Source: Acidimicrobiia bacterium
GTDB taxonomy: Bacteria; Actinomycetota; Acidimicrobiia; Spongiisociales; JAHEDJ01
Direction of reading: 5' to 3'
Length of the DNA: 38,054 bases
NCBI GenBank assembly: GCA_029210695.1
Contig: JARGFH010000036.1
Location: 1 to 38,054 of the forward strand
How positions within the stretch are numbered: the stretch's first letter is position 1; each line of letters opens with the position of its first letter. A model generated the notes under the pieces. That model saw nothing but the letters and a program-made list of their open reading frames with translations, searched no databases and was not told where the DNA came from. Made by a program: the position numbers and the translations under genes. Shown here one piece after another: positions 5,609 to 33,288 of this stretch.

Positions 5609-5640
5609 GTCGCGGGTCGCGGCGCCGTTCCAATTGCCAA

Positions 5641-5690
5641 TTGCTTTCTGCCAGTGGCGTTGGTTACCGTTCCTTCTGGAAGCGATTCCA
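5641..5690 (+). promoter_or_regulatory. Sigma70-type promoter with LacI-family operator
   Basis: TTGCTT (5641-46)-N18-TACCGT (5665-70). Palindrome TGGAAGCGATTCCA (5677-5690) has the central CG typical of LacI/GalR operators. Confidence 0.7.
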
Positions 5691-5703
5691 AGCAGGTGTC
5701 CCC

Positions 5704-8112: not shown

Positions 8113-8132
8113 AACAACTGAATAGATAACCC

Positions 8133-8162
8133 ACGAGGGGCGGCGACGGCGCCGCCCCTCGT
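8133..8162 (+). terminator. Intercistronic 13-bp hairpin (attenuator or mRNA stabiliser)
   Basis: ACGAGGGGCGGCG-acgg-CGCCGCCCCTCGT between the binding-protein and permease genes; no U-tract. Confidence 0.65.
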
Positions 8163-8204
8163 CGTGTAGTCTCCCGCTTGCTATTCGACGGGAGGAGTAG
8201 GCCA

Positions 8205-18191: not shown

Positions 18192-19331
18192 TCAGCAGCT
18201 TGACCTCTGCCCGGCGTTGATTATGCAGATCCTGGCTTCGGGGTCGGTAGGGTCGCCGCATACCGCACCCCCGAGTCCTGGCGCGCTCTTGATGCTGAAC
18301 TCAAACTGGCCTGTACATTCATCGGCTGTGTTTGGGAGGCTGAGGTCACCGCCGTAGGCGTCCTGAAGGTCGGAGACGGTTGCGCCGATGGCTATTCCTG
18401 CGCTGGTGGCAAGTGGCGAACGGATGTCGAATGGCATCGATCGCGCCATCCCGTGAAAGCCGTAGAGCATGTCCATGTGGGTCAGATACCAGGCATCGAA
18501 ATGCGGGACTCCATCATCACGGAATAGGTGCCAGTCTGAGAAGGTGACGGTTAGTCCAACACCATCGTGGAGTTGCCAGTGCGCTTCGGCGTAGTAATCC
18601 TCAGCGGGATGACCGTAGAGGCAACTGTCCATGTCGTATTCAGGGACACACGAATACTCGTGGCCGGGTGGTCCGAGCACGGAGATGAGTCGTTCCAGAG
18701 CCTCTTCCGCCGGGTCGCCGAAGTCGATGAGACCGAGTCCGTCACCTCGGAGTTCGATCTGGTCGTAGAACACGAACGGTTTCGGGTCGTAGGTAACGGT
18801 CAGCTCCACCTGGGTGGACGCCGCCGAGGGACAGGAAGCGGTGAACGTGAACGTGTTTCCCCCTGGGGTCAGTTCCAGGATCAGCCACCACTGACTTGGC
18901 GCATCCGTCGGAGCTTGGGGATAAGGTTCGGGGACAATCGCCTCATAGCCGCCCTTTGCCGTGACGGTGCAACCCCGTTCGACGCTCCCGAAGAACAGCT
19001 TCGATCGTTGAGTAACCGTTTCGCCGTCCTCCGGCGAGTTGACCTCCAGAGTCGGTGGACCTTTCGGCGGAGCGGTGATCGAAGTTAACGCCGTCGTGGC
19101 AGAAGAGGTGACCAAGGGGTCCGCAGTGCTCGTCGCGGTGGCGGCACGGGCAGTTGTCGACGATATCGATGAAGTCCACGAAACGATTGTGGTCGTGGTC
19201 GACGCTTGAGCCGTTGTAGTAGAAAACCCGGTCGTCTCGTCAGCGCTCCCACAGGCATCCAGCAACAGGGACACACAGACCACGACGGCGAGTAACACGC
19301 GCCTCGGTTCTATTCGTTCCGTTGATCTCAT
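18192..19331 (-). CDS. Hypothetical lipoprotein with Thr/Ser stalk, Ig-like domain and unknown C-terminal domain
   Basis: Hydrophobic signal plus LLDAC; Thr/Ser-rich linker; PTLEVNSPEDGETV...LTPGGNTFTFTA...VELTVTY Ig-like segment. ATGA-coupled to the upstream gene. Confidence 0.75.
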   Translation of the reverse strand: MRSTERIEPRRVLLAVVVCVSLLLDACGSADETTGFSTTTAQASTTTTIVSWTSSISSTTARAATATSTADPLVTSSATTALTSITAPPKGPPTLEVNSPEDGETVTQRSKLFFGSVERGCTVTAKGGYEAIVPEPYPQAPTDAPSQWWLILELTPGGNTFTFTASCPSAASTQVELTVTYDPKPFVFYDQIELRGDGLGLIDFGDPAEEALERLISVLGPPGHEYSCVPEYDMDSCLYGHPAEDYYAEAHWQLHDGVGLTVTFSDWHLFRDDGVPHFDAWYLTHMDMLYGFHGMARSMPFDIRSPLATSAGIAIGATVSDLQDAYGGDLSLPNTADECTGQFEFSIKSAPGLGGAVCGDPTDPEARICIINAGQRSSC

Positions 19332-20542
19332 CGTCCCCGTCCCAAGAGCGACACGACACTGGGGGTGCCGATGTATATGGCCGGATGTTCTCCCCAGGTG
19401 TCGACGATTCGGATGTCGACCCAAACGTGGTTTGACCAGTCCCACCGGTGGAGAACGACGTGGCGTCCGTCGAAGTCCCCCAGTTGCACGTCCGCTCCGA
19501 TTTCGGTACTCCACATCTCTTCACCGGTGGTGAGGTCTACCACTGCCACCACTGCGGGGATCAGTTGGCTCTTCTCCCACCATCCGTCGTGGTCGCCCGT
19601 GCAGACACGGGGTCCTGTCGGGAAGTTGTCCGAATCCGGCCAGAATGCGTCGGGTCGATACCGGTAGGCCAGCAGGTTCCCGTCATCAGAGATCCGTGCA
19701 GCCAGTTCGCACGGAGCACAGCCCTGGCCCGAAGGAAACGGGTTGGAGGCTACCTCGACCTCGGTGCCGGATCGATCCCAAAACTCGATCACGTCGTAGG
19801 TGTAGTCACCGCCACACTGGCCGTAGGGGGCCCCGACGAACAGCCCCCCACCGAAAGACCCGATGTCGTACCCTGCGTCCTCCATCGGCAGGCATATGAA
19901 GGTGGACTCGTCCCCGGTAGGTAGGGCATACCCATTGAGCGCCCAGTCCGCGCACGGCCAGGTGTCCGGGTCAATCTGGATTGGCACACCGGAGTAGAAC
20001 AACGTTGCGGCACCATCCAGAATGCCCGTGAAACCCGGGTGCCAGTAGCCCGACTCACGTTCCACCTCGACCGGTTCTGATTGCCCAACTCGTTGCCACA
20101 TCAAGATTGGCTGCTCTTCGGGCATGAACATGACACCGCCCTCTAGATCATCAGCAGCCCATTGCACCGGACCTTGATCCCACAGGATTGTCGGAATCCC
20201 GCGCTCAACTCTGATCAGGCCGAAGGGTCCGTGCCACAAAAAATCCGGTCCGGTCGCAGCTTCTGGTGGAAGCGACAAGGCTGTGGTAGCCGTTGTCGAA
20301 ATCGCGGCTGTGGCGACCTCTTGGAGCGCTGCCAATCCCGAGTAGTCCACCGATACACCGCCCAGTGTGCTCGAAGGTGTCGAAGTCGAAGCGCTGGTCG
20401 TGGAGGCCACCAACGTCTCGCCGGCCGTGCTCGTCGTCGCTGAGGTAGCGGTTAGAGAGGATCCAGCGGTGTCCTCGCCGTCGGTCCCGCAGGCGGCCAA
20501 CAACAGGGACCAGCAAACTGCGATGGCGAGTGTGTAGCGCAT
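19328..20542 (-). CDS. Hypothetical lipoprotein, probably beta-rich/propeller
   Basis: Lipobox LLAAC, Thr/Ser-rich linker, ISDDGNLLAY and VVDLTTGEEMW blade-like motifs. Confidence 0.78.
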   Translation of the reverse strand: MRYTLAIAVCWSLLLAACGTDGEDTAGSSLTATSATTSTAGETLVASTTSASTSTPSSTLGGVSVDYSGLAALQEVATAAISTTATTALSLPPEAATGPDFLWHGPFGLIRVERGIPTILWDQGPVQWAADDLEGGVMFMPEEQPILMWQRVGQSEPVEVERESGYWHPGFTGILDGAATLFYSGVPIQIDPDTWPCADWALNGYALPTGDESTFICLPMEDAGYDIGSFGGGLFVGAPYGQCGGDYTYDVIEFWDRSGTEVEVASNPFPSGQGCAPCELAARISDDGNLLAYRYRPDAFWPDSDNFPTGPRVCTGDHDGWWEKSQLIPAVVAVVDLTTGEEMWSTEIGADVQLGDFDGRHVVLHRWDWSNHVWVDIRIVDTWGEHPAIYIGTPSVVSLLGRGR

Positions 20543-20836: not shown

Positions 20837-22621
20837 GTGATCTTGGATTCGGCAAACGGGCGCCGTAGCGCGGATGCGAATTCTCCTCGTGTGGTGCTGA
20901 TCGATGGCGAAGCGCCCGGCCCGGGGAGTCTTCGAGGGCTGCTGTTGGCGGGGTTGGTCGTTCTTGTTGTGGGGGGTATTGCACTATCTCAGGGTTATGA
21001 CGTGCAGGACGTCGCGCCGAGCACGCTGCCGCCGGTCCCGCCTTCTTCATCGACGTCGACCACCGTCGGGAGACGCCCGTCGCCGGTCGGCGAGGTAGCG
21101 GGGCAGTTTGAATCTCGCATACTCGACTGGGTATATGAGGTGAACGATGTTGAGGTTTCGCCGGATGGCTTGATGTATGTGGCGGCACCGGTGGGGGTTG
21201 CCCGGCTGGACGGGGCAGGCGAGTGGACTCTGATCGACGTGGAGGACCTGCCCGGCGGGACAGGTCTGGAGGGCGGGCGTCCGGGTCTCGGGTTTCCGGG
21301 TCGGAATATCGAACAAATCGCCATCGGCTCCGATGGAGTGTTGTGGGTGGCCGGGTCTTCCGTATCCCGGGCGGATGATGAGCAGTTCGGCGGACGCTTG
21401 GAAGGGTGGTTCGGTGCACGGTGGCTTTGGTGGGTGGCGCGTCTTGATGGCTGTTGGGGGCGTTGTTGGTGGACGGTGTTCACCTCCGACGATGTTCCCG
21501 AGCTGGAAGGCGGCATCGGTGATCTGGTGGTTTCGGAGGAAGGCGCCGTCTATTTGTCGGTGGGTGAAGACCGGCTGCTTGTGTTCGACGGATACGAGGG
21601 GGGTTCCTACTCGGTGCCCCTTCCAACAGATTTGAACGAGTCACTGTGGTCGGATTCGTTGGCGGTTGGAGACGACGGTGTGGTGTGGGCGGCTACCGAC
21701 CATCACAGCGGGGGAGTGCTCTCTTTTGACGGTGCCGGGTTTACCCGACATACGACCGAGGACGGCCTTCCCAGCGACACCGTAGTGCAGGTCACGACTG
21801 GGACGGACGGCACCATTTGGTTGGCCACCGAGGCGGCAGGGGTTGCTGCCTTTGATGGCACGATCTGGACTACCTACACGATGGCAGATGGGTTGCTGTC
21901 CAACGATGCTGTGATAGCCACCGGTATCGACGGCACGGTGTGGGCAGTCCACTATGGGTTCCCCCCATACGGATATTCACGATTTGATGACACCGGATGG
22001 ACGACCTACCCGTTCGATTCCCCGGTGGGTGACCGCCAGGCGGCAGTCACCTCGGACGGGACTCTGTGGACCGTCTCGGAGGACGAGTTGACCAGTTTCG
22101 ATGGCATCACCCGTACCATCCATCCCTCCCCGTTCACTCAACCCGTTCCCGCAACCATCGCGCTCTCCATCGACGGTTGGGAAGGAGTCGAGGGGTATCG
22201 GTTGTTGGCCGTAGTCTCGTCGTCCGATGGCTACAACGAGTTGGTAGGTGGAGCGTTTTGGACGATGATCGACTCCGACCCCTACTCGGGAACAGACTTC
22301 GTGCATCCGCCGAACTGGAGAGATGAGCCGCCCTGGGTTTTATCCGAGTCCTGGGGCGAAGGGGCGTATCTGTGGGACGAGACGGCCGGGCTGGAACCCG
22401 GCCTCTATCGGATCCACTTCCTGGCGAATCCCGGTACGTTGGCACCGTTCAACAGACACATCCCGGCCGACCCTATCGAACGCTACTGCTCGCTTGATAT
22501 TGAAGTCTCATCCGGTGTAGAAACCACCGTCAGAATCTCCGGAATCCCCACCACAGGATTGGCGTCCGATTGTCTGGGAGTCGCCGTTGACACTGAGGCC
22601 GTACCCAGCTCACCCCCATAA
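20837..22621 (+). CDS. Membrane-anchored beta-propeller protein (two-component regulator propeller-like repeats)
   Basis: One N-terminal TM helix, Pro/Ser/Thr linker, repeated (S/D)DG.(L/V/I)W blades, TTEDGLPSD and TMADGLLSN motifs. No kinase domain. Start uncertain. Confidence 0.75.
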   Translation: MILDSANGRRSADANSPRVVLIDGEAPGPGSLRGLLLAGLVVLVVGGIALSQGYDVQDVAPSTLPPVPPSSSTSTTVGRRPSPVGEVAGQFESRILDWVYEVNDVEVSPDGLMYVAAPVGVARLDGAGEWTLIDVEDLPGGTGLEGGRPGLGFPGRNIEQIAIGSDGVLWVAGSSVSRADDEQFGGRLEGWFGARWLWWVARLDGCWGRCWWTVFTSDDVPELEGGIGDLVVSEEGAVYLSVGEDRLLVFDGYEGGSYSVPLPTDLNESLWSDSLAVGDDGVVWAATDHHSGGVLSFDGAGFTRHTTEDGLPSDTVVQVTTGTDGTIWLATEAAGVAAFDGTIWTTYTMADGLLSNDAVIATGIDGTVWAVHYGFPPYGYSRFDDTGWTTYPFDSPVGDRQAAVTSDGTLWTVSEDELTSFDGITRTIHPSPFTQPVPATIALSIDGWEGVEGYRLLAVVSSSDGYNELVGGAFWTMIDSDPYSGTDFVHPPNWRDEPPWVLSESWGEGAYLWDETAGLEPGLYRIHFLANPGTLAPFNRHIPADPIERYCSLDIEVSSGVETTVRISGIPTTGLASDCLGVAVDTEAVPSSPP

Positions 22622-22688: not shown

Positions 22689-23954
22689 CTACGGGCCCAG
22701 CTTGGCGTTTAGGGCTGGCGTACCGGCGACTTGAATGACGGTTGGTCCAATGGTCAGCAGCTTACGGTAGGCGAACGCGGCGGCAAGGAGCGTTGCTACT
22801 CCACCGAGACCGAGTCCGTAGCGCGGCCCGACGTTCTCGCCGACCCAACCGATGATTGGACCTCCGATCGGCGTCGACCCCAGAAACGCCACAGCCCACA
22901 ATCCCATGACACGTCCACGCATCTCGGGGGTGGCGCTCAGCTGAAGAGTGGCGTTTCCCAGGGCCAGAAAGGTGATGCTGGCTGCTCCAAGCGCAACCAG
23001 GGCCACGTAGACGGTCACGAGGTTGGGAGCGAACGAGGTGATGAGTTGGGTAACGCCAAAGACTGCCGCCGTACGTGAGAGGGCAACCGCCGGACGGGTA
23101 CGACGAGACGCCGCCACCAGGCCCCCGACGACCGCCCCTCCGCCCATGCAGGCGGACATCGTGGCGTATGTTCCGGCGTCGCCCCCGAACGTGAATTTGG
23201 CGATCAGCGGCAGTATGACCTGGAATTCATAGGCGAACATGCCGACGACACCCATCATCAGGAGGGGAGTGAGGACGGCGGGTGTCGCCCCGACGTACCG
23301 CAGCCCTTCTCGCAACTGCCCGGCGCGGCGCGGCTGGGGCGCCACAGTCTGCAGCTCATCGGCCCGCATGAGGATAAGAGCAACGATGACGGCCAGATAG
23401 GTTCCTGAATTGACCAGGAAGCAGGGTCCCAACCCCACCGTAACGATGAGAACCCCGGCTGCCGCCGGCCCGAGGACACGCGCCAGATTGACCAATACCG
23501 AGTTGAGGCTCACGGCGCTGGTGAGCTTCTCACGTCCAACCAGTTCGGGAACGAAAGTCTGTCGCGTCGGGTTGTCGACGCTGGAGACGAGACCGAGCGC
23601 GCCGGCCAGGACGTACACCATCCAGAGCCGGATGACATCGAAGACGACCAGCAACCCCAGTGCGCAGGCCAGAATCGCCGCCGCGCTTTGGGTGATCAGA
23701 AGCAGACGCTGCTTGTTGAACCGGTCGGCGATGACGCCGCCGTAGGGGGCGAGGATGAGCATGGGCAGGAACTGAACCGCGGTGACCAGGCCGAGAGCCG
23801 TTCCGCTTCCCGTCAGTTCCAACACGAGCCACGATTGGGCAACCCTCTGCATCCAGGTCCCCGACATTGAAAGCGTCTGGCCGATGAAATAGAGCCGGAA
23901 ATTCCGGATGGCCAACGGCGAGAAAGCTCTCTTGACCCAGACGGGCCTGCTCAT
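22689..23954 (-). CDS. MFS transporter (12 TM, MFS_3/DHA3-like)
   Basis: RNFRLYFIGQ.LS.SGTWMQ.VAQSWLV, GGVIADRFNK, MRGRVMG. Confidence 0.93.
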   Translation of the reverse strand: MSRPVWVKRAFSPLAIRNFRLYFIGQTLSMSGTWMQRVAQSWLVLELTGSGTALGLVTAVQFLPMLILAPYGGVIADRFNKQRLLLITQSAAAILACALGLLVVFDVIRLWMVYVLAGALGLVSSVDNPTRQTFVPELVGREKLTSAVSLNSVLVNLARVLGPAAAGVLIVTVGLGPCFLVNSGTYLAVIVALILMRADELQTVAPQPRRAGQLREGLRYVGATPAVLTPLLMMGVVGMFAYEFQVILPLIAKFTFGGDAGTYATMSACMGGGAVVGGLVAASRRTRPAVALSRTAAVFGVTQLITSFAPNLVTVYVALVALGAASITFLALGNATLQLSATPEMRGRVMGLWAVAFLGSTPIGGPIIGWVGENVGPRYGLGLGGVATLLAAAFAYRKLLTIGPTVIQVAGTPALNAKLGP

Positions 23955-24388
23955 TCGCCGGCCGCGATCTTGTCGAGGAGAACGGCGACTTTGGCCAGGG
24001 TGCCCACTTCTTCGTCGCTCAGGTGGGTCATCCGTTTCGCCAGGAACGCGCTGCGCCGCCGGCTAGTCGTGTCCAGGATCTCTCGGGCCGGTGCCGTCAG
24101 TCGCACGATTGTTGACCGGGCATCTTCCGGACTCGGCTCCCGGGTCACCAGCCCGCTCCCTTCCAGCCTGCCGATGATGCCGGTGATGCTCGGGCGTGAA
24201 ACTCCCTCGATGGACGCCAGCTCACCCATCCGAAGCGGACCCCGCCGGTCGAGCGTCGCCAGCACCGAGCGCTGGGAAGGAGTGAGATCACCCATCGATT
24301 CCTGCCGAAGACGGCGAGCCAGGCGGGCGACGGACAGCCACAAGGACCCGGCCGCTTCTTCTCGAGCGCCGTTCACCGAGTCTTCCAT
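23951..24388 (-). CDS. MarR-family regulator
   Basis: LTPSQ.SVL..L..GPLRMGELA..EGVSRPSIT.II.RLE..GLV.R...PEDAR; coupled to the MFS gene. Confidence 0.92.
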   Translation of the reverse strand: MEDSVNGAREEAAGSLWLSVARLARRLRQESMGDLTPSQRSVLATLDRRGPLRMGELASIEGVSRPSITGIIGRLEGSGLVTREPSPEDARSTIVRLTAPAREILDTTSRRRSAFLAKRMTHLSDEEVGTLAKVAVLLDKIAAGE

Positions 24389-24399
24389 TCCAAAGGCAT

Positions 24400-24412
24400 T
24401 TAGCCATGCTAA
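24400..24412. promoter_or_regulatory. Candidate MarR operator
   Basis: TTAGC-CAT-GCTAA palindrome 11 nt upstream of the marR start, in an AT-rich patch. Confidence 0.55.
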
Positions 24413-24506
24413 TCAAAAAGGAGCAGCGCGAGGTTGGCATGTTCGGCGAACTGGACGACAATGGCGGCGACGCGGCTTTGCCGCTCGCTTCAGGAGGTAT
24501 TGATCG

Positions 24507-24689
24507 ATGATCGTCGGATACTTGGATCCAGGCTCTGGCAGTTTGCTGCTGCAAGCCATGCTTGGAGGCCTCGCCGGCCTCGCCGTCGCCTTCAAAGCGT
24601 GGAAGAGCAGATTCTCGATTTCTCGTCAGTTGTCCAAGCTGGAGAAAGAAGTAGAAGCACCGGTGGACGAGACCCCACTCGGGTCCTGA
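24507..24689 (+). CDS. 60-aa single-TM microprotein with YLDPGSGS motif
   Basis: AGGAGG SD; YLDPGSGS followed by a hydrophobic helix and a basic then acidic tail; 7 nt upstream of the next gene. Confidence 0.8.
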   Translation: MIVGYLDPGSGSLLLQAMLGGLAGLAVAFKAWKSRFSISRQLSKLEKEVEAPVDETPLGS

Positions 24690-24696
24690 CGACCGC

Positions 24697-26070
24697 ATGA
24701 TCTCCGCCGACCCGGGTTCGTTTCGCGATCCGGCCTCGCAGATCTTCATCGACGGTACGCGAGTCCTGCGCACTCTCGACGAGCGCGGTCTCGAGGCCTG
24801 GCGGGCACTGGCCGGGACTGACTTCCTCGAGAGGGCGGTTACAGACAGCAAGATCATTGCCTCCACCGAGATAGTTGATCCACCCGCAGGCGCCGCCGGC
24901 GCGCTGGAGCATCCTCGCCTGCCCTTGATCACCTACCCGTACGAGTGGACCTTTTCGATGCTCAAGGACGCCGCACTCCTTCAGTTGGATCTGCTGGAAG
25001 GCGCACTCGGTTCCGGATTGACGATCAAGGATGCAACTCCCTTCAATATTCAGTTCGTGGACGGCAGTCCGATGTTCATCGACATCGGATCATTCGAGCG
25101 ATATCAACCCGGTGAGCCGTGGATCGGCTATCGCCAGTTCACCAGGCAGTTCCTCTTCCCACTCATGCTGCGGGCCTGGAGTGGTGTTCCCTTTCAACCC
25201 TGGATGCGCGGCGACATGGAAGGTCCGACCGCCGCCCATATGCGGAGCCTCTTGCCGTGGTGGCGAAGAATCCAACCCCGCGTTCTCCTCCATGTGGTGC
25301 TCCAGGCGCGGATGGAGGAGCGGATGTCCGGTAAGGCGGTTCGCGACGATCTCAGGCGGGCCGGATTCTCTGCCGACTTGATCCTCGCCAACGTGAGGAA
25401 ACTCCGCCGCCTCGTCGAATCGTTGCAGTGGGATCCCGAAGATGACGGATGGTCTGACTACCACGCCTGCACCCATGTGGAGCGGGATCGGGCCACCAAG
25501 GGCGAGTTCCTCGAGAGCGTCCTTCAGCGCGTGGAACCCGGCAGGGTGCTCGATGTTGGGGCCAACGACGGCTACTTCTCTCAGATCGTGGCCGGCCGTG
25601 GCGCACACGCCATCGCGGTCGACGGCGACGAGGCCGTTCTCGACCACCTGCACCGGCGTGGGACCGGGAAGGCCTTGTCAATCGTGGTGGGCGACCTCGC
25701 CAATCCATCGCCATCGCAGGGATGGGCCGGTGCGGAACGCCCATCGTTGTTCGAACGGGCCCGCCCGGACCTGGTTATCGCCTACGGTCTCATCCACCAT
25801 CTGATCTACTCGGCCAGCATCCCACCGCGCAGGGTCATGGAGTGGCTGCGCAGCTTCGACTGCCCGGTTGTGGTCGAGTTCGTCTCACCTTCAGACGAGA
25901 TGGTCGCCAAGCTCATCGGCAACAAGCTGGCCGAGGAGCTTCACGAAGGACGGGATGAAGATGCCTTCAGGGAGATCATCGCCGGCCTCTTCGAGATCAG
26001 AGACGAACGGAAGCTCGGGTCGGACACCCGCCTGCTGTTCGAACTGCATCCCCGGGAGGTCAGTCGTTGA
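24697..26070 (+). CDS. NoeA-like protein: N-terminal kinase-like domain plus C-terminal class I SAM methyltransferase
   Basis: GSFRDP, TYPYEW.FSMLKDAA, KDATPFN (catalytic-loop-like), FIDIGS (DFG-like), VLDVGANDG SAM motif, LIHHL, VVEFV. Confidence 0.82.
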   Translation: MISADPGSFRDPASQIFIDGTRVLRTLDERGLEAWRALAGTDFLERAVTDSKIIASTEIVDPPAGAAGALEHPRLPLITYPYEWTFSMLKDAALLQLDLLEGALGSGLTIKDATPFNIQFVDGSPMFIDIGSFERYQPGEPWIGYRQFTRQFLFPLMLRAWSGVPFQPWMRGDMEGPTAAHMRSLLPWWRRIQPRVLLHVVLQARMEERMSGKAVRDDLRRAGFSADLILANVRKLRRLVESLQWDPEDDGWSDYHACTHVERDRATKGEFLESVLQRVEPGRVLDVGANDGYFSQIVAGRGAHAIAVDGDEAVLDHLHRRGTGKALSIVVGDLANPSPSQGWAGAERPSLFERARPDLVIAYGLIHHLIYSASIPPRRVMEWLRSFDCPVVVEFVSPSDEMVAKLIGNKLAEELHEGRDEDAFREIIAGLFEIRDERKLGSDTRLLFELHPREVSR

Positions 26071-28534
26071 AGGTCGCCGGATCGCTGATCGCGTAATCCC
26101 CGAATTCCGCTACGACCGTCAACCGGTCGAGCCCATCCGGCACCGAGCCGGCGTCGATCTCGAATGAGAATCCCGACCGGAGAAGATCGTCACTCTTGTA
26201 CCACCTCACAACGTTCGGGTTGTCGAGATTGGGTGGGCCGTACGCAACGAGTGAGTCGCCGGCAAAGACGTAGAACCGGTCGGCGGTGACCTTCCGGCTG
26301 ACATCGGCCGCCCAACCGACCACGTGCCAGCCGGACTCGGTTCTCGTCACCTCGTCCACCTGAAGACGCCGGTTGCCCTCGTCCTGCAGTGCGAGCACGT
26401 GCCCGTCGTCTGCGATGTACTCGAGGTTCACGTCGTCCGCCGATCCGGTCAGCCATCCTGAACCGTCCGGTATCGGGACGAGGATGGTGAGTTCGTTCGC
26501 TCCGTCCGTCATCAGATCTTCTGCGACGAGCCCCCGGATCTGCCCACCGCTGGGAGTGTCCCGGGAGATGAATCCGGCCCCCGCCACCCGTCCGTTTACC
26601 GCGATGAGAATGTCGTCGCCTTCAACGTCGGTGGGCAGCTCGAGCCGGCCGGTGATCAGGGTTTGGACCATGCCGGACCGGCGATCGACCGAGGCGAGTG
26701 CATTGGCGTGATCGAGCGACCAGCGCACCTCGTCGCTGGCTTCCGGGCTGAGTTCGACCACCGGTGTGCCGACGAGTTCGCGGTATGGCCCTACCGCGGC
26801 GATCTCCGTCCAACTGTCCTGACCGGGTACCCATTGGTGGTTGCGGGCGACTTGCTCGAAGAGGACCGAGACGTCGGTGCTCGCGCCCTCCGTGCTGCAG
26901 CACCAGTGGATGATCGTGTGAGGGCGGTCGGTGCTTTCGATGTCCAGCAACGACATGCCGTCGAGCTCCCAGTCGCTGGAGATGTCCAGGGCGTCGATGA
27001 TGGTCGGGAGGATGTCGATTGTGAAGGCCGGCTCATCCCGGGTCATTCCTTCGGTTTGGCCGGGGTATTTCACGAACAACGGAACCCGGTAGAGGTCATC
27101 GCGGTTGTTCTCGTACGGCCACCGTCTGTGCTCGCCGGGGACGAATGAGGCACCGTGGTCGGCCACCACGATGATCATGGCATCATCCCAGCTGCCCGTC
27201 TCTGCCAGTCGGTCGAAGAGCGATCCGAGCATCGTATCGAGGAACCCCAGCTGGTAGAGGTGCCGCTGGAAACCGAGCCGGGTGATGTTGGGGTCGACAT
27301 CCCAGAACCCCGACCCCTGGACACCGTCGACCTCGCTGTATTGCTCCGGCCGCTCGTAGTGGGTTCCCGACGGGTTGACGACCCAGGGCACATGAGGGGA
27401 TTTCAGATGGGCGTAGTGGACCGTCGGTGGGGCGTCTTCGGTAACACCATTGATGATCCGCTGAATCCAGTCGATCCACTCGCTTCGGACACCGGCCTTG
27501 GGAACGGGAAAGTCGTCGACGGCGACGGGTGACGCCGATGGGTTGTTCTCCTGACCGAGGAACCCCTTCCAGGTGTTGTCGATGCTGGGGAGGTTGTCAC
27601 GTGCCCCGGCGGGGAGGGAGAGATGTCCGTACACCACGCCCGTATCGCGGACCAGCGAGGCGAATCGGGCCGGGGCCCTCCCGGCATAGTCCTCGCATAC
27701 ATCTTCCGGGCAGAGGTCGGCTACCCATTCGATCACGTGCATCTCATAGGCGCTGCCTAGCAGGGTGAATAGGTTGTCCGGATGGTCTATCGCCGACGGG
27801 CTGAGATCCTTGCTTCCGAAACGTCCCGTCAGCGCGGCCGGGACGCTCTGCGTTGTGGCGATGGAGGCGGACAGTGCGTTCCGGTACCAGGTGCCGGAAT
27901 TCGCCAGACGGGCGAAGTTCGGGAAAAGCGTTTCGTTGATCGAACCGTCCATGTTCATCATCGAGGCGGTTGGGAACTCATCGAGTTGTATGAAGACGAT
28001 CGAATGCGGTTGACCGACGCGGCTGGTGTCGATCGAAGCGGCGGCGGCGGGTTGTTCCCAGATGAGCCGGGACGTGGCGGAGAACACCAGGAAGAGAACG
28101 AGCACGGCCGGAAGTGCCAGCGAGAATAGAACCAGTGTTCCTTCGATTCTCTTGCGCAGGATGATCAAGACCGAGGCGATCACCAGGGTCAAAATGATCG
28201 CGCCGACGGTGCCGTCCGGTACCGCCTGCCGGCTGATCACCAGACCTAGCGCTGCTCCGCCCAGCCCTACGAAGGTTATGTAGACGCGGGTGGCCGTCCG
28301 GGATCCGATCTTCTCTGCCAAGCCTAGGAACAGGAGACCGATGAGCGGCGGAACCAACGTGATCATCAGCGCAAATAGAACGATCTGCGACTTGCTGGCT
28401 CGATTGGCGACAAAGACCTCTGGATTCTTTCCGTAGAGATCGAGAAGGGGCGCGGCAACGGCCGCGGCGCTGAGCGCGCAGATGACAAGAAAGCGGTGCC
28501 AGAGTCGGCGTCTGTTGATTCGGCTCATCGGCAC
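26060..28534 (-). CDS. Membrane-bound alkaline-phosphatase-superfamily (LtaS/sulfatase-like) transferase with C-terminal beta domains
   Basis: About 5 N-terminal TM helices, IQLDEFP, ATTQSVPAALTG (Thr at the nucleophile position), HLKSPHVPW, VVADHG, RVPLFVKYP. TACCAT lies 6 nt before GTG 28534. Confidence 0.85.
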   Translation of the reverse strand: MPMSRINRRRLWHRFLVICALSAAAVAAPLLDLYGKNPEVFVANRASKSQIVLFALMITLVPPLIGLLFLGLAEKIGSRTATRVYITFVGLGGAALGLVISRQAVPDGTVGAIILTLVIASVLIILRKRIEGTLVLFSLALPAVLVLFLVFSATSRLIWEQPAAAASIDTSRVGQPHSIVFIQLDEFPTASMMNMDGSINETLFPNFARLANSGTWYRNALSASIATTQSVPAALTGRFGSKDLSPSAIDHPDNLFTLLGSAYEMHVIEWVADLCPEDVCEDYAGRAPARFASLVRDTGVVYGHLSLPAGARDNLPSIDNTWKGFLGQENNPSASPVAVDDFPVPKAGVRSEWIDWIQRIINGVTEDAPPTVHYAHLKSPHVPWVVNPSGTHYERPEQYSEVDGVQGSGFWDVDPNITRLGFQRHLYQLGFLDTMLGSLFDRLAETGSWDDAMIIVVADHGASFVPGEHRRWPYENNRDDLYRVPLFVKYPGQTEGMTRDEPAFTIDILPTIIDALDISSDWELDGMSLLDIESTDRPHTIIHWCCSTEGASTDVSVLFEQVARNHQWVPGQDSWTEIAAVGPYRELVGTPVVELSPEASDEVRWSLDHANALASVDRRSGMVQTLITGRLELPTDVEGDDILIAVNGRVAGAGFISRDTPSGGQIRGLVAEDLMTDGANELTILVPIPDGSGWLTGSADDVNLEYIADDGHVLALQDEGNRRLQVDEVTRTESGWHVVGWAADVSRKVTADRFYVFAGDSLVAYGPPNLDNPNVVRWYKSDDLLRSGFSFEIDAGSVPDGLDRLTVVAEFGDYAISDPATFND

Positions 28535-28712
28535 CGCCGAATGGTACCGGTTGCAGGCGTCAATCAGACAACGTGCCGTCGACCCGAAATGCGCAAAGCA
28601 AGCGGTTCGGGCTCAGCCCTGAACCGAAAATGATCATGCAGTCGGCCGAAATTGGTCGCGGAGGCCCCTATTCTGCGACAATCGCCTTTGCCCGCCTCCC
28701 GAAAGACCCTTG

Positions 28713-29732
28713 ATGTCCGGCAACGCCGCCTTCAATCTGATCGACACTGCCATTGTCTCCGTTGCTCATGTGGATGCACCGGAGGTGGTTACTTCCGCAG
28801 AATTCGACGAGATCCTTGCCGAGACCTACGAGCGGGTCGGCGCTCAACCGGGACTTCTCGAGAGCCTCGCCGGCATCCGTGAGCGCCGCTGGTGGCCCGA
28901 AGGGCATCTTTTCACCGATGCAGCTGCCGCAGCCGGAGCAAAGGCGATCGAGGCCAGCGGCGTCCGGGTCGAAGAGATCGGCTTGCTGATCGACACTTCG
29001 GTCTGCCGCGATCGGCTCGAACCGTCTTCCGCGGTCACGGTCCACAATGCGCTCGATCTCCCCAGCTGGTGTCTCAATTTCGACCTCTCCAACGCCTGCC
29101 TCGGGTTCGTCAATGCACTCCAGGTGGCCGGCAACATGATCGACGCCGGACAGATCAACTATGCCCTGATCGTCGACGGCGAGGGCAGCCGCCTCATTCA
29201 GCAGAGAACCCTGGAACGGCTCTCGAGTCCCGATGCGACCATGGCCGACCTCTTCGCCGAATTCGCATCGCTGACGCTCGGCTCGGGAGGGGCCGCCGCA
29301 GTCGTTGGACGGCACTCTGAGAACCCCGGGAGCCACAAGGTGGTTGGTGGGGTGGCCAGGGCTGACACGAGTCACCACAACCTGTGTATCGGGGATATGA
29401 ACCAGATGCGTACGGATACCAGAGGTCTTCTGGATGCCGGACTGCAGGTCTCCAAGCTGGGCTGGATCGATGCAGAGGAGCGGGGCTGGCTGGAGGTCGA
29501 CCGCTACATCGTCCATCAGATCTCACTGGTGCACACGACGATGCTGTGTGAGCACCTGGGAATAGACATGGCCAAGGTTCCGCTCACGTTCCCGTACCTC
29601 GGCAACGTCGGCCCGGCGTCGATTCCCATCACTCTGTCCCGGGAAGCCGACTCACTCCTGGCCGGGGATAAAGTCCTCCTGATGGGGATGGGGTCCGGCA
29701 TCAATGCATCGGTGATTGAACTGGTCTGGTGA
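28713..29732 (+). CDS. oleA: OleA, thiolase-fold head-to-head acyl-CoA condensing enzyme
   Basis: SVCRDRLEPS (Glu base), SNACLGF (Cys), FASLTLGSG, VHQIS (His), GNVGPASIP (Asn), GSGIN; ole operon context. Confidence 0.9.
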   Translation: MSGNAAFNLIDTAIVSVAHVDAPEVVTSAEFDEILAETYERVGAQPGLLESLAGIRERRWWPEGHLFTDAAAAAGAKAIEASGVRVEEIGLLIDTSVCRDRLEPSSAVTVHNALDLPSWCLNFDLSNACLGFVNALQVAGNMIDAGQINYALIVDGEGSRLIQQRTLERLSSPDATMADLFAEFASLTLGSGGAAAVVGRHSENPGSHKVVGGVARADTSHHNLCIGDMNQMRTDTRGLLDAGLQVSKLGWIDAEERGWLEVDRYIVHQISLVHTTMLCEHLGIDMAKVPLTFPYLGNVGPASIPITLSREADSLLAGDKVLLMGMGSGINASVIELVW

Positions 29733-32299
29733 CCGCCGGTTCGACGTCGCCGGCCGCACTTCCTCCGTCCGGCCTGGCCGGTCTCGAACCCGGGTGGTCG
29801 CGGCTCGTCACGACAGCGGGCCTCGACGGAGCCGGCCGAACCTGGCACGTGCTCGACAACGGTGCGCAAGATCCGACCCTCACCCTGCTGTGTGTGCACG
29901 GCAACCCGACCTGGTCGTATCTCTGGCGTGAGCTGATCGCCGGCGCCCCGCCAACGGTGCGGGTGGTTGCGCCGGATCAGCTCGACATGGGTTTCTCGGA
30001 ACGGACCGGGACGGCTCGCCGGTTTGAGCAGCGGATCGAGGATCTGTGTGCACTGACCGAGGAACTGGGACTGAAGGGACCGGTCGTGACAGTCGCCCAC
30101 GACTGGGGTGGTCCGGTTTCTCTGGGCTGGGCCGAGCGCCATCGCGATCAGATGGCCGGAATCGTGCTGATGAACACGGCCGTGCACCAACCGGGCGGGT
30201 TGACGGCACCCCGGCTGATCCGCATGGTCCGGGCCGGTGGGATCCTGGAGAAAGCCTGCGTTGCGACTCCGACCTTTCTGCGGGGAGCCCTGGCCCTGGC
30301 TCGACCTCGCCTTGCCACGTCCATCCGCGAGGCCTATGAAGCTCCGTACCGCACTTCCGACCGGCGAGCGGGGATCGGCGCCTTCGTCGAGGACATCCCG
30401 CTGAGTGACGATCACCCGACCCGGCGGCCTCTGGATGAGGTTGCCGCCGGCCTCGACCAACTTGGCGAAGTTCCGGCGCTGCTTCTGTGGGGCCCACGCG
30501 ACCCGGTGTTCTCCGAGCGCTATCTGCACGACCTCGTTGCCCGGCTACCGAAGTCCGAGATTCATCGATTCGAGGGTGCCGGTCACCTCGTGACCGAGGA
30601 CGCCGATGTCGCAAGTGCCATTTCCACCTGGGTCCAGGGGCTCGACCGTGCGCCCTTCCCGGTTACACCGATCGCGGATCGAGAACCGCTCTGGGCCGCC
30701 CTCGACCGGCGGAGCGAAGATGCCGCCGTGGCCATCGTCGAGATGGGTTCCGGCGGAGCAGAAGCATCCCTTACGTTTGCAGAACTCAATTCGGATGTGA
30801 GGAGCGTGGCTGCCGGGCTCGCCGAGTTCGGCGTTGAGAAAGGCGATCGGGTCGCCTTGCTGGTTCCACCGGGCATCGACCTGGCCGTCTCTCTCTACGC
30901 CTGCTGGCGGATTGGGGCGGTGGTGGTGGTTGCCGATGCCGGTCTCGGTGCCCGTGGCATGAGCAGGGCACTCGCAGCCGCCAACCCGGACTACCTCATC
31001 GGGGTTCCCCGTGCCCTGGCCGCCGCCCGGACGCTGGGCTGGCCCGGTCTGCGGATTTCAACCGCACCGCTGGGGCCGGCTCTCGTCCGTCTGTTTGATG
31101 TGCGGGCGACCCTCGATGAGCTGCGCAGCCGAGGCAAACGGCGCCCGGCTCCGCCGATGCCGGAGCCCGTCGATGAGGCGGCGATCGCTTTTACGTCCGG
31201 CGCGACGGGGCCTGCCAAGGGAGTTGCGTATCGGCACCACCAGCTTCAGGCCCAGCGTGACGCCCTCGTCGATCTATACGGGATCCATAGCGATGACCGC
31301 CTGGTGGCCGCGTTCGGGCCGTTCGCCCTGTTCGGGCCCGCCATGGGTATAACTTCCGTGGTGCCGGACATGGTTGTTACTGCTCCGGGCAGCCTCACCG
31401 CTCGAGCACTGGCGGAGGCCGTGCAGGCAGTCCGGGCAACGCTCGTCTTCGCCTCTCCCGCCGCGTTGACCAATGCTGCGCTGACGGCAGACGGGGTATC
31501 GGCTGCCGGAGCCGCCGCAATGCAGGGGGTCCGGTTGGTGATGTCGGCGGGGGCACCGGTTCAAGTCGACGTTTTGCGCGGAGCCGTCGCGCTGATGCCG
31601 CGGGCCCAGGCGCGCACTCCCTACGGCATGACCGAGGTTCTGCCCGTCGCGGACATCAGCCTGACGGAAATCGAGGCGGTCGGATCGGGAAATGGAGTAT
31701 GTGTCGGACATCCGGTTCGAGGTGTCGAGGTGGCGATCAGCCCCTTCGGCTCCGGCGCTGAGGAGACGGGCACCCTTACCCACGCCGGCGGCGTCGCAGG
31801 CGAAGTCTGCATCCGGGCCGCGCACATGCGGGACGGTTACGACGGCCTCTGGATGACTCAGCAACTGGCGTCGCAACCGGCCGGTTGGCACCGCAGCGGG
31901 GATGTGGGCCATTTCGATGACGCCGGCCGCCTGTGGATTGAAGGCAGGGTCGGACACATCGTGACGACTGCAGGCGGATTGGTGACTCCGGTCGGGATTG
32001 AGCATTCGGTGACGGCTCTTCCCGATGTTGCGCAAGCGGCTGCAGTCGGGATCGGTCCGGCCGGCACGCAGCAGTTGGTCGTGGTGGTGGTTCCGGTGGC
32101 CGGCCGCCGGCGTCCGGATCTGGCCGATGAGGATCTAGCCGATCGGGTCAGAGCGCGGGTCGGCGCGATCGACGTAGCCGCGGTCCTGACGGTCCCGTCA
32201 CTTCCCGTCGACAAGCGTCACAACTCCAAGATCGATCGTCCCCGGGTCGCCCGTTGGGCAGCGCAGGTACTGGCCGGCGGCCGCTTGGGTCGAATATGA
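29729..32299 (+). CDS. oleBC: OleBC fusion: beta-lactone decarboxylase (alpha/beta hydrolase) plus beta-lactone synthetase (AMP ligase)
   Basis: HGNPTWS, HDWGG, MNT, GAGHL.TED, followed by FTSGATGPAKG, TPYGMTE, HRSGDVG and VDKRHNSKIDR. Confidence 0.9.
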   Translation: MTAGSTSPAALPPSGLAGLEPGWSRLVTTAGLDGAGRTWHVLDNGAQDPTLTLLCVHGNPTWSYLWRELIAGAPPTVRVVAPDQLDMGFSERTGTARRFEQRIEDLCALTEELGLKGPVVTVAHDWGGPVSLGWAERHRDQMAGIVLMNTAVHQPGGLTAPRLIRMVRAGGILEKACVATPTFLRGALALARPRLATSIREAYEAPYRTSDRRAGIGAFVEDIPLSDDHPTRRPLDEVAAGLDQLGEVPALLLWGPRDPVFSERYLHDLVARLPKSEIHRFEGAGHLVTEDADVASAISTWVQGLDRAPFPVTPIADREPLWAALDRRSEDAAVAIVEMGSGGAEASLTFAELNSDVRSVAAGLAEFGVEKGDRVALLVPPGIDLAVSLYACWRIGAVVVVADAGLGARGMSRALAAANPDYLIGVPRALAAARTLGWPGLRISTAPLGPALVRLFDVRATLDELRSRGKRRPAPPMPEPVDEAAIAFTSGATGPAKGVAYRHHQLQAQRDALVDLYGIHSDDRLVAAFGPFALFGPAMGITSVVPDMVVTAPGSLTARALAEAVQAVRATLVFASPAALTNAALTADGVSAAGAAAMQGVRLVMSAGAPVQVDVLRGAVALMPRAQARTPYGMTEVLPVADISLTEIEAVGSGNGVCVGHPVRGVEVAISPFGSGAEETGTLTHAGGVAGEVCIRAAHMRDGYDGLWMTQQLASQPAGWHRSGDVGHFDDAGRLWIEGRVGHIVTTAGGLVTPVGIEHSVTALPDVAQAAAVGIGPAGTQQLVVVVVPVAGRRRPDLADEDLADRVRARVGAIDVAAVLTVPSLPVDKRHNSKIDRPRVARWAAQVLAGGRLGRI

Positions 32300-33288
32300 G
32301 AGTTCTCGTTACGGGCGCCACGAGCTTGCTGGGACGCGTAGTTGTGGGCCGGCTGACCGGCCGCGGAGACGATGTCACGGTTTTCCAGCGAAGACCCGCC
32401 GACCTAGGGGTTGCCGAACACCTTGGTGACGTTGCAGACCGTGCGGCGGTAGTCGCGGCCATGGCCGGGGCGGAGGGGGTCATCCACCTGGCTGCCCGAG
32501 CGACGGTGACCGGATCGTGGCAGCAGTTCGAATCGACCAACGTCATCGGCACACGGAACGCCCTCGATGTCGCCAGTGCAGAAGGGGTCGACCGGTTCGT
32601 GCACGTGTCGTCTCCGTCGGTTGCCCACGCAGGCAGATCGCTCGTCGGGGAAGCCGCCGGTCCCGCAGATCCCGATCGCGCCCGGGGGCACTATGCCAGG
32701 AGCAAGGCACAGGCAGAACTGATCGCGCAGGCCGCCAATTCGACGAGCCTGGCGGTCGTCGCCATCAGGCCTCATCTCATCTGGGGGCCGGGTGACACGC
32801 AGCTGGTGGAGCGGATTGTGAGCAGGGCCCGAGGGGGCCGATTGGCGATCGTGGGTTCCGGTGCTTCCCTGATCGATACCACCTATGTCGACAATGCCGC
32901 CGATGCCCTCGTGGCCGCCTTGGACCGGGCTCCGGAGCTTGGAGGCAGAGCGCTGGTGGTCACCAACGGGCAGCCACGCCCGGTTCGCGAGTTGTTGAAC
33001 AGAATCGTTCTCGCCGCCGGTCTGGAGCCGCCCCGCGTCAAGGTTCCCTACCGGGTGGCTCGTACCAGCGGACTCGTCGTGGAGCGGATCTGGGAGCGGC
33101 AGAGAAGGGAAGATGACCCCCCGATGACGAGCTTCCTCGCCGAGCAGCTCGGAACGGCCCACTGGTTCGACCAGCGAGAGACCAGGAGGGCCCTCTCGTG
33201 GGAGCCGGTGGTGAGTCTGGATGAGGGTTTTCGGCGGCTCAACGCCTGGTATGAAACAGGCGGCGCCGGATCGGCCCGCCGCGGCTAG
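32296..33288 (+). CDS. oleD: OleD, 2-alkyl-3-oxoalkanoate reductase (extended SDR)
   Basis: VLVTGATSLLG, HVSSPSV, YARSK, IRPHLIWGPGD; ATGA-coupled to oleBC. Confidence 0.88.
   Translation: MRVLVTGATSLLGRVVVGRLTGRGDDVTVFQRRPADLGVAEHLGDVADRAAVVAAMAGAEGVIHLAARATVTGSWQQFESTNVIGTRNALDVASAEGVDRFVHVSSPSVAHAGRSLVGEAAGPADPDRARGHYARSKAQAELIAQAANSTSLAVVAIRPHLIWGPGDTQLVERIVSRARGGRLAIVGSGASLIDTTYVDNAADALVAALDRAPELGGRALVVTNGQPRPVRELLNRIVLAAGLEPPRVKVPYRVARTSGLVVERIWERQRREDDPPMTSFLAEQLGTAHWFDQRETRRALSWEPVVSLDEGFRRLNAWYETGGAGSARRG

Follow-up and report, generated by a model that had tools for sequence, protein, structure and literature searches.

An Acidimicrobiia Version of the Microprotein-NoeA-NoeB Gene Cassette, a Putative Envelope-modification System

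The window analyzed here, a 38,054-nucleotide stretch of DNA from an Acidimicrobiia bacterium, carries three genes at 24507..28534 that encode a microprotein of 60 amino acids (aa), a 457-aa homolog of the rhizobial protein NoeA, and an 824-aa membrane enzyme related to NoeB. The three genes are real and belong together as a distant actinobacterial copy of the widespread NoeA/NoeB cassette of rhizobia. The facts presented below fit an envelope-decoration pathway split across the membrane, and the most likely role of the cassette is to attach a phosphate-based group to some molecule of the cell envelope. On balance, we lean toward reading the region as the Acidimicrobiia version of a widespread microprotein-NoeA-NoeB envelope-modification cassette that works by the mechanism proposed here. 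NoeA and NoeB are said to have been host-range genes without solved biochemistry since 1995.

The family to which these genes belong is large, spans many phyla, and offers several handles. These include a catalytic set like that of Escherichia coli WbdD, which predicts methyl-phosphate chemistry, the putative Thr nucleophile of the outer enzyme, and a usually overlooked fourth gene whose product carries a motif predicted to face outward. If the cassette were solved in a host amenable to experiment, a widespread envelope modification would be explained, along with part of the host range on Medicago.

Gene Layout

The three open reading frames (ORFs) described are exactly those that the ORF list gives at the cassette:

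24507..24689, + strand: microprotein gene, 60 aa; the protein begins MIVGYLDPGSGS (ORF list)
24697..26070, + strand: NoeA-like gene, 457 aa (ORF list)
26060..28534, - strand: NoeB-like gene, 824 aa, GTG start (ORF list)
24434..24462, + strand: promoter-like site TTGGCA-17-GACAAT, a consensus match only, 45 nucleotides (nt) upstream of the microprotein ORF
24492..24497, + strand: Shine-Dalgarno sequence AGGAGG, read from the sequence, 9 nt before the microprotein ATG

The original prediction, made from the DNA alone, had proposed a 60-aa transmembrane microprotein, a 7-nt gap, and an 11-bp convergent overlap, and the ORF list bears this out: the spacer occupies 24690-24696, and the NoeA-like and NoeB-like genes converge with an overlap at 26060-26070. 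An ATG two codons further into the NoeB-like gene, at 28528, may be its real start; the Atlas record begins at that residue. The promoter-like site falls in the 118-bp gap that separates a divergent MarR gene from the microprotein gene, and 23900-28800 contains two such sites against a mean of 0.4 in shuffles. The microprotein is taken as a real gene because of its Shine-Dalgarno sequence, the promoter-like site, 17 close relatives of 52-66 aa in the protein collection, and copies detected by a profile hidden Markov model (HMM) upstream of NoeA-like genes elsewhere.

The G+C content is ∼62% throughout the window. A Pfam scan identified the core genes for undecaprenyl-diphosphate synthase, a class II tRNA synthetase, DnaG primase, and a sigma-70 factor, and a mycothiol S-transferase gene is also present. 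Those close relatives of the 457-aa protein that have a source name are mostly from Acidimicrobiia.

Relationship to NoeA and NoeB

By alignment, the 457-aa protein is a full-length homolog of Sinorhizobium meliloti NoeA, as had been claimed. The two proteins are 31% identical over residues 7-454 (BLASTP, E 9e-68). A tblastn search of plasmids with the 457-aa protein matched 65 records, 57 of them from Sinorhizobium, with 30.8% identity, 98% coverage, and E 1e-53, and the match falls on genes annotated noeA.

The 824-aa protein is, by several comparisons, a relative of NoeB. The original prediction had described NoeB as a membrane protein of the alkaline phosphatase fold, and this was correct: the 553-aa S. 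meliloti protein matches Pfam Sulfatase (1.1e-10) and carries the motifs T-Q-V-S-V-P-A-A-L and G-D-H-G, the first of which it has in common with the window protein as T-x-x-S-V-P-A-A-L. Direct BLASTP similarity is weak (23% identity over 142 aa, E 2e-7), and NoeB sits on a very long branch of a quick tree. Alignment of the NoeB-like family to NoeB with hhalign gave a probability of 93.6% (E 2e-7, 303 columns) and placed residue T227 of the window protein opposite the NoeB Thr.

Gene order on the S. meliloti plasmid pSymA is nodL, a 71-aa hypothetical gene, noeA, noeB. The 71-aa product belongs to the microprotein family, making this a fourth gene of the classical nodL-noeA-noeB operon (locus L081, 4248-4463, from CP140958.1; locus numbers are our own). 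It is annotated only as hypothetical, and it overlaps the noeA start by 23 nt. Like the S. meliloti operon and the Legionella genes Lani_1193-1195, the window cassette combines a small membrane protein bearing Y-L-D-P-G-[ST]-G-S, a kinase-like plus methyltransferase enzyme, and an alkaline-phosphatase-superfamily membrane enzyme with T-x-x-S-V-P-A-A-L. Unlike the S. meliloti operon, it has no nodL-type or OafA-type acetyltransferase, and its NoeB-like gene is convergent rather than co-directional. The NoeB-like protein has 824 rather than 553 aa and two extra C-terminal modules, the microprotein has a 4-residue leader in place of a signal-peptide-like one, and the bacterium that carries the cassette belongs to Acidimicrobiia and shows no nod genes in the window.

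The cassette has already been noticed in print yet is biochemically unsolved. The original prediction had called the system undescribed, which fails because a 2022 paper on the Legionella kinome reported the three-gene neighborhood (Krysinska et al. 2022, PMC9758233). In its available passages, Lani_1194/NoeA is described as a family that joins a kinase-like to a methyltransferase domain and occurs in 1201 species in addition to Legionella, with the methyltransferase domain in 94% of about two thousand homologs. In Lani_1194 itself, R38 replaces the catalytic Lys, and the D, N, and D residues are conserved. Among 816 neighborhoods, homologs of Lani_1193 occur in 65% and homologs of Lani_1195 in 38%. 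The supplement lists Lani_1193 as hypothetical with no domain and with alignment ranges up to residue 65, and gives EptA (5FGN) as the HHpred match for both Lani_1195 and NoeB. The same passages call the Lani_1193-1195 set a likely functional unit and propose that secreted factors or the envelope are decorated. The text passages and supplement contain no mention of the microprotein motif, its signal peptide or topology, the Thr nucleophile, or a residue-level WbdD match. The strings YLDPG, YLDPGSGS, and YLDPGTGS were not found as text in the literature searched.

Passages of other papers bear on the rhizobial genes. A 2022 preprint (bioRxiv 10.1101/2021.11.23.469708) still describes what NoeA and NoeB do as unknown and, in the part available, reports that a nodL mutation polar on noeA/noeB altered only Nod-factor O-acetylation. 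Nod-factor modification by NoeA/NoeB is termed a hypothesis in the relevant passage of a 2022 genome paper. Excerpts of earlier comparative papers record that noeA also occurs in bacteria other than Medicago symbionts and that a strain with poor nodulation has a truncated copy.

Co-occurrence across Phyla

The three genes travel together across phyla. Genomes were scanned with a profile consisting of an alignment of 12 NoeA-like sequences, a subset of 60. At least 600 stretches matched; 599 of the 600 listed code for relatives, and the 80 top-scoring loci were retained. The lineages represented are Actinomycetota, Acidobacteriota, Binatia, Planctomycetota, Pseudomonadota, and Bacteroidota, at least six phyla. 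Because the 80 loci are the best-scoring ones, the percentages may exceed those of the whole family.

An HMM built from the 17 close relatives of the microprotein detects a same-strand copy directly upstream of the NoeA-like gene in 72 of the 75 loci that extend far enough upstream to be evaluated; the other three are L061, whose copy is frameshifted, and L024 and L037, which have none. Just one further match at E<1e-3 was obtained from ∼900 kb of loci, and it lies beside a second NoeA-like copy. A NoeB-like gene (E<1e-20) lies within 6 kb in 63/73 evaluable loci, adjacent on the same strand in 52, adjacent and convergent in 6, and elsewhere in 5. All three genes are present in 57 of the 68 loci evaluable for the full set. 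Such co-occurrence had been put forward as a check on the original prediction, which also suggested a role in a general envelope pathway and not in nodulation; the cassette is indeed found far outside nodulating bacteria. The same trio also occurs on two further annotated plasmids. When ORFs of ≥80 aa were clustered, no other neighboring gene cluster was present in more than 8 loci, overlapping-frame artifacts aside. A mirror-tree comparison over 18 loci gave correlations that are too weak, from pairs that are too dependent, to be used, with the microprotein at r = 0.55 to the NoeA-like and 0.49 to the NoeB-like proteins (partial values 0.34 and 0.19).

Individual loci provide further observations. 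A Vicinamibacterales contig has a second microprotein and NoeA-like pair (L015, 2061-3808, - strand). Similarity of its NoeA-like copy is lost after ∼220 residues; the copy is disrupted by an insertion sequence, and a transposase-like ORF at 1090-2241 adjoins. On the Singulisphaera plasmid pSINAC01, the equivalent microprotein ORF (L082, 3796-3978) is unannotated. The cassette on plasmid Lpl of Novosphingobium sp. PP1Y (L083, 1-3135) adjoins genes for a phosphomannomutase, a GDP-mannose pyrophosphorylase, and a glycosyltransferase, which hints at a polysaccharide context in that organism.

The NoeA-like Enzyme

The NoeA-like enzyme is predicted to consist of an atypical kinase-like domain with intact catalytic residues and a class I S-adenosylmethionine (SAM) methyltransferase:

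24697..25434, + strand: protein-kinase-like domain, aa 1-246, with invariant R25, D112, N117, and D129 (alignment, model, Foldseek)
25444..26070, + strand: class I SAM methyltransferase domain, aa ∼250-457, with D286-x-G288, D309, and H367-H368 (Pfam, model, Foldseek)

An exhaustive search found 5124 relatives at E≤1e-3 among 50%-identity representatives, and 1484 of these clusters at E≤1e-30; the majority span the full length. Across 60 diverse members there is no variation at R25, D112, N117, D129, D286, G288, or H367, and almost none at H368.

Evidence for the methyltransferase domain includes matches to four Pfam methyltransferase families at aa 278-375, each just below its cut-off. In addition, an AlphaFold model of the full protein, with a predicted local distance difference test score (pLDDT) of 93.8, retrieved only class I methyltransferases by Foldseek (E ∼1e-7). 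The assignment of a C-terminal methyltransferase in the original prediction therefore agrees with both methods. Pfam finds nothing in aa 1-260. Because the full-length Foldseek search returned methyltransferases only, aa 1-246 were folded separately with 57 sequences from the loci (pLDDT 89.6). This model gave at least 500 Foldseek matches at E≤1e-3, and all 47 matches listed are protein kinases, among them CK2 alpha, PknG, MSK1, VRK3, and PAK1 (E ∼3e-6 to 2e-5). A kinase fold at the N-terminus was among the points on which the original prediction had staked itself, and a kinase-like fold with its catalytic residues in place is what the model suggests. Hydropathy identifies no membrane segment in the enzyme. 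A role in defense was considered for the cassette and not adopted; PADLOC gave only a weak methyltransferase match (mad2, 7e-7).

The analogy to WbdD with swapped domain order, drawn from the start, is strengthened by profile comparison. When the full NoeA-like family profile is compared with the PDB, three WbdD sequences score best (E 2.8e-6, 3.1e-6, and 4.9e-5), with both domains matched. The alignment falls into three stretches, one at methyltransferase motif I, another at the HH region, and a third at the kinase catalytic loop. D112, N117, and D129 align with WbdD D351, N356, and D369 in the profile alignment to 4uw0_A and 4azw_A, and the segment with H367-H368 aligns with WbdD F131-H132-H133, which puts H367/H368 opposite H132/H133. 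According to passages of PMC3482155, WbdD adds a phosphate to the terminal mannose and then places a methyl group on that phosphate. In the same passages N356 and D369 bind Mg-ATP, H132, H133, and R203 form a phosphate site around the methyl group, and methylation is lost in H132A and H133A.

Both proteins are thus bifunctional kinase plus SAM methyltransferase enzymes by this comparison (WbdD of E. coli O9a is represented by PDB entries 4azs, 4azw, and 4uw0), and the catalytic-loop Asp, Mg-binding Asn, DFG Asp, and His-His phosphate site all have counterparts in the NoeA-like enzyme. They differ in several respects. WbdD is arranged as methyltransferase, kinase, and coiled-coil, whereas the NoeA-like enzyme has the kinase-like domain first and stops at aa 457, without a coiled-coil or membrane-binding C-terminus. 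R25 lies at the position of the usual Lys, a reading made for Lani_1194 in the passages of PMC9758233. Furthermore, neither a Wzm/Wzt transporter gene nor a polymannose glycosyltransferase gene adjoins the NoeA-like gene.

The NoeB-like Enzyme

The 824-aa protein is predicted to have the build of the LtaS, EptA, and OpgB phospho-headgroup transferases:

28082..28534, - strand: membrane domain, aa 1-151, with five hydrophobic segments (hydropathy, charge counts)
within 28082..28534, - strand: family motif A-x-P-L-L-D-L-x-G-K/R-N-P-E-x-F after the first segment, common to the downstream genes of the loci
26915..28021, - strand: alkaline-phosphatase-superfamily catalytic domain, aa 172-540 (Pfam Sulfatase, profile matches)
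27854-27856, - strand: codon of the putative nucleophile T227 (alignment to solved sulfatases)
26063..26902, - strand: C-terminal extension, aa 545-824, which looks like two beta-rich modules (Atlas model)

Hydropathy alone places the segments at 15-33, 51-76, 82-100, 108-126, and 133-151, in line with the five membrane segments first proposed. The Arg-rich N-terminus carries 5 K/R and an inner loop reads RKRIEG; five segments after such an N-terminus place the catalytic domain outside. The Pfam Sulfatase match covers aa 179-518 (7.3e-26). Within the family alignment P29, H376, D459, and H460 are invariant, and D185, T227, C275, and C280 are nearly invariant in 36 members; T227 is invariant in 29 sequences.

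To map the nucleophile, a sub-profile of aa 172-300 was aligned with solved sulfatases, and five alignments were printed. In four of the five, T227 occupies the position of the formylglycine Cys/Ser (Cys in 6bia and 9koq, the Ser of a mutant in 6b0k, and the equivalent position in 4fdi); in the fifth, 2vqr, the motif is longer. These alignments and the Pfam match accord with the earlier description of an LtaS-like enzyme with a Thr nucleophile. The C/S-x-P-x-R signature of type I (formylglycine) sulfatases is absent from the protein and is replaced by T-T-Q-S-V-P-A-A-L-T-G-R.

It is extremely improbable that the protein is instead a hydrolase, such as a sulfatase or a phosphatase/phosphodiesterase. 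Its Pfam family is named Sulfatase, and the top PDB sequence matches of the protein and its profile are phosphonate monoester hydrolases and sulfatases. However, LtaS, LtaP (lipoteichoic acid synthase and primase), and YejM are also among the PDB matches, a Thr replaces the sulfatase signature at the nucleophile position, and five membrane segments precede the catalytic domain, as in LtaS/EptA-type transferases. The NCBI name of the Singulisphaera homolog is “LTA synthase family protein.”

The likeness to LtaS, EptA (MCR-1), and OpgB lies in five N-terminal membrane segments followed by a sulfatase-fold domain predicted to face outward, and in a Thr at the nucleophile position together with a D-H metal pair. 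Set against this, the 824-aa protein falls below the NCBIfam cut-off of every named member of this group (22.7 bits against 970 for lipoteichoic acid synthase). It further differs in a conserved motif of its own that follows the first membrane segment, in a pair of conserved Cys residues, and in ∼280 aa added at the C-terminus. Pfam assigns the last 280 residues to no family, the nearest being an Fn3-like match at 0.048. In the Atlas model the nearest structures to the C-terminal modules are mostly tails of the same sulfatase-like family; Ig-like modules of cell-wall hydrolases score below 0.4 by template-modeling (TM) score and are leads only. Another difference is the genetic tie to a kinase-methyltransferase and a microprotein, and such a tie is not known for LtaS/EptA/OpgB-type enzymes.

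The Microprotein

The microprotein is predicted to be a single-pass membrane protein with its conserved N-terminal motif outside and a basic tail in the cytoplasm:

within 24507..24689, + strand: Y5-L-D-P-G-S-G-S12 motif, N-terminal, predicted to face outward (family alignments, topology reading)
within 24507..24689, + strand: single transmembrane helix, aa ∼11-31, with Q16 and G20-G21 (one hydrophobic segment by hydropathy)
within 24507..24689, + strand: K/R-rich tail, predicted cytoplasmic (hydropathy/charge)

No family in Pfam or NCBIfam matches the microprotein, and an Atlas search returned only unnamed clusters. In 46 locus sequences Y5, D7, G11, and G21 are invariant and G9, S12, G20, A23, and V27 are nearly so, whereas the tail is poorly conserved. 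Counts over a larger set, numbered from the motif Tyr, are as follows:

Motif positions 1-4: Y 73/73; L 64/73; D 73/73; P/A 73/73
Motif positions 5-8: G 68/73; S/T 72/73; G 66/73; S 71/73
Motif positions 12, 16, 17: Q 61/73; G 64/73; G 73/73

In Actinomycetota and Planctomycetota, 3-9 residues precede the motif Tyr. In diderm loci (Acidobacteriota, Binatia, Gamma- and Alphaproteobacteria), a hydrophobic leader ending in [A/V]-x-A stands immediately before the Tyr in 15 of the 20 sequences printed. The same AxA-type leader is found in Novosphingobium, in a frameshifted copy (L061), and in the 71-aa S. meliloti member, which reads ...IVPAHA-YLDPGTGSMLVQ..., so that IVPAHA runs directly into YLDPGTGS. 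We read this leader as a signal peptide, with predicted cleavage leaving the motif as the outward N-terminus of the mature protein. Y-L-D-P-G-S-G-S is taken to face outward because the AxA leader directly precedes the Tyr in many diderm lineages.

Translational coupling of the microprotein gene to the NoeA-like gene is suggested by their spacing: from microprotein stop to NoeA-like start the median is 9 nt, with ≤10 nt in 34/62. No microprotein-NoeA fusion turned up when the first 120 residues of 270 NoeA-like proteins were scanned for the motif. A candidate NoeA-like/NoeB-like fusion of 890 aa (P0213) was rejected; its joint is of low complexity and it is most likely a read-through or frameshift of adjacent genes.

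Proposed Pathway

The proposed chemistry, plausible by analogy and now better grounded, would begin at the inner face of the membrane. There the NoeA-like enzyme, by homology to WbdD, would phosphorylate a hydroxyl of a membrane-associated substrate, probably lipid-linked or a glycan, and would then methylate that phosphate as WbdD does. At the outer face, the NoeB-like enzyme, acting through Thr227, would take a phospho-headgroup from a membrane lipid and pass it to an acceptor. The microprotein may serve as a membrane-spanning partner that holds the soluble NoeA-like enzyme at the membrane, in place of the C-terminal membrane-binding part of WbdD, and its exposed motif may couple the cytoplasmic step to the outer step. 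It is given this role because it is the only membrane-spanning part tied to the soluble enzyme. The original prediction had suggested that the kinase/methyltransferase may make a lipid-linked donor for the outer enzyme and that the microprotein may be an anchor, adaptor, or substrate; the predicted outward position of its motif, together with the lack of a membrane segment in the NoeA-like enzyme, is the one new constraint on that role. In S. meliloti, the target is probably not the Nod factor itself, in view of the nodL mutant described above.

Conflicting Evidence and Alternative Explanations

Several observations weigh against this pathway, and some of them favor other explanations. The chief doubt concerns topology: the most conserved half of the microprotein is outside and the NoeA-like enzyme lacks a membrane segment, so that the idea of a tether leaves a gap. 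Moreover, two Actinomycetota loci (L024 and L037) have NoeA-like and NoeB-like genes and no microprotein ORF upstream of 5998; in both, another gene ends ∼60 nt before the NoeA-like start.

The main rival, which we consider unlikely, is that the microprotein is the acceptor. The NoeB-like enzyme would place a phospho-headgroup such as phosphoethanolamine or glycerol phosphate on Ser10 or Ser12, and the NoeA-like enzyme would serve another step. EptA-family enzymes transfer phospho-forms to protein Ser/Thr, as PptA does on pilin and EptC on FlgG. The predicted position of the motif, outward and directly at the membrane surface, is where enzymes of the NoeB-like build work, and the family motif that follows the first segment, the best-conserved part of the NoeB-like membrane domain, is likewise predicted outside. 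Ser/Thr at motif position 6 and Ser at position 8 are kept in 72 and 71 of the 73 sequences, respectively. On the other hand, the microprotein tracks the NoeA-like gene (72/75) more closely than it tracks the NoeB-like gene (63/73), and the neighborhood frequencies in the passages of PMC9758233 are similarly skewed (65% versus 38%). It is present in all 10 loci without a nearby NoeB-like gene, although the copy in L061 is frameshifted. Finally, between two Acidimicrobiia clades the microprotein is ∼70% identical, but the NoeB-like proteins are only 27-30% identical. The frameshift in L061 (∼5620-5992) splits the microprotein gene between motif and membrane helix and may be an assembly error or mark a pseudogene.

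A more elaborate version, which we regard as quite improbable, makes the microprotein a protein primer or carrier. A Ser of the exposed motif would be the covalent site at which the LtaS-like enzyme adds or polymerizes a phospho-headgroup, and the WbdD-like enzyme would supply or cap a matching lipid-linked component with methyl phosphate. The product would be a protein-anchored teichoic-acid-like or phospho-form structure; this would represent a new class of envelope polymer anchor and would give concrete chemistry for NoeA/NoeB.

Returning to the proposed pathway, a second set of difficulties involves the NoeB-like gene, the loosest member of the cassette. It is absent within 6 kb in 10/73 loci, its Lani_1195/NoeB-type counterpart reaches only the 38% of neighborhoods given in the passages of PMC9758233, and in the window it is on the opposite strand and therefore cannot be co-transcribed with the other two genes. 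In the quick tree of NoeB-like proteins, the window protein belongs to a separate clade of 7 rows (100 in the SH-like approximate likelihood ratio test, SH-aLRT; stem 1.22), set apart from the co-directional Acidimicrobiia type. These features would also be expected if the unit in the window were the microprotein and NoeA-like genes only, with the 824-aa enzyme acting independently, for example as a general phosphoglycerol or phosphoethanolamine envelope transferase; the strand, the long-stemmed clade, the two extra C-terminal modules, and the 10 loci all point that way. We consider this distinctly unlikely, given that a NoeB-like gene is adjacent in 58/73 evaluable loci and that the convergent layout recurs in 6 loci. 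Four Acidimicrobiia relatives are among the convergent loci, similar to the window protein over nearly the full length (E 1e-271 to 0.0), and the N-terminal motif, T227, and the D-H pair are common to the window protein and the co-directional type.

A third set concerns the cytoplasmic chemistry assigned to the NoeA-like enzyme. The kinase-like fold is claimed at moderate strength because the Foldseek kinases reach TM scores of only 0.35-0.47 (query-normalized, ∼150 columns) and the N-domain profile found nothing among PDB sequences, with a single match at E 1.4. The WbdD match covers only ∼130 residues in three short stretches, each weak by itself (independent E values of 0.07, 20, and 95). 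Two His or two Tyr occupy the same place in NodS and RebM, according to passages of PMC3482155, and the His pair is therefore suggestive rather than diagnostic of phosphate methylation. When 22 further window ORFs were scanned with Pfam, no gene for glycan assembly or Wzm/Wzt export was seen to adjoin the cassette; all that the scan showed of this kind was a sugar-uptake ABC system (6793-10297) and one GT4 glycosyltransferase ∼10 kb off. Likewise, ORF clustering in the 80 loci revealed no ABC-transporter-dependent O-polysaccharide gene conserved beside the cassette.

The kinase matches raise one further explanation, which we hold to be very improbable: the NoeA-like enzyme may be a protein kinase that acts on the microprotein, phosphorylating and perhaps methylating its motif before export, or its tail, as a signaling or maturation device for a membrane peptide. 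All 47 listed fold matches of the N-domain are protein kinases (CK2, PknG, and MSK1 among them), the two genes are predicted to be translationally coupled, and the pair is duplicated together in L015. The best relative at the sequence level, however, is WbdD, a sugar kinase of the same fold. In addition, the cytoplasmic tail is poorly conserved, and the motif is predicted to end up outside, in many lineages behind a signal-peptide-like leader.

Neighboring Genes

Two mutually overlapping ORFs of 440 and 404 aa at 18192-20542 (- strand) match no Pfam family at E≤1e-5 and are candidate genes. A 594-aa ORF at 20837-22621 (+ strand) has a hydrophobic N-terminal segment and no NCBIfam family; a weak match to the Reg_prop repeat (8.4e-5) is its sole family match. 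Divergent from the microprotein gene are an MFS_3 transporter gene (22689-23954, - strand) and a MarR-family regulator gene (23951-24388, - strand) that overlap by 4 nt. The MarR, MFS, and Ole (olefin) neighbors found in the window lie beside the cassette in none of the 80 loci.

The Ole gene set stands directly beside the cassette at 28710-33288 (+ strand). Its members, in order, are an OleA-like ketosynthase (NCBIfam NF006720, 421 bits, above cut-off), an 856-aa fusion of an OleB-like alpha/beta-hydrolase with an AMP-ligase, and an OleD-like gene of the NAD-dependent epimerase/3-beta-HSD family. The best names for the fusion, both below cut-off, are “fatty acid CoA ligase family” and olefin beta-lactone synthetase.

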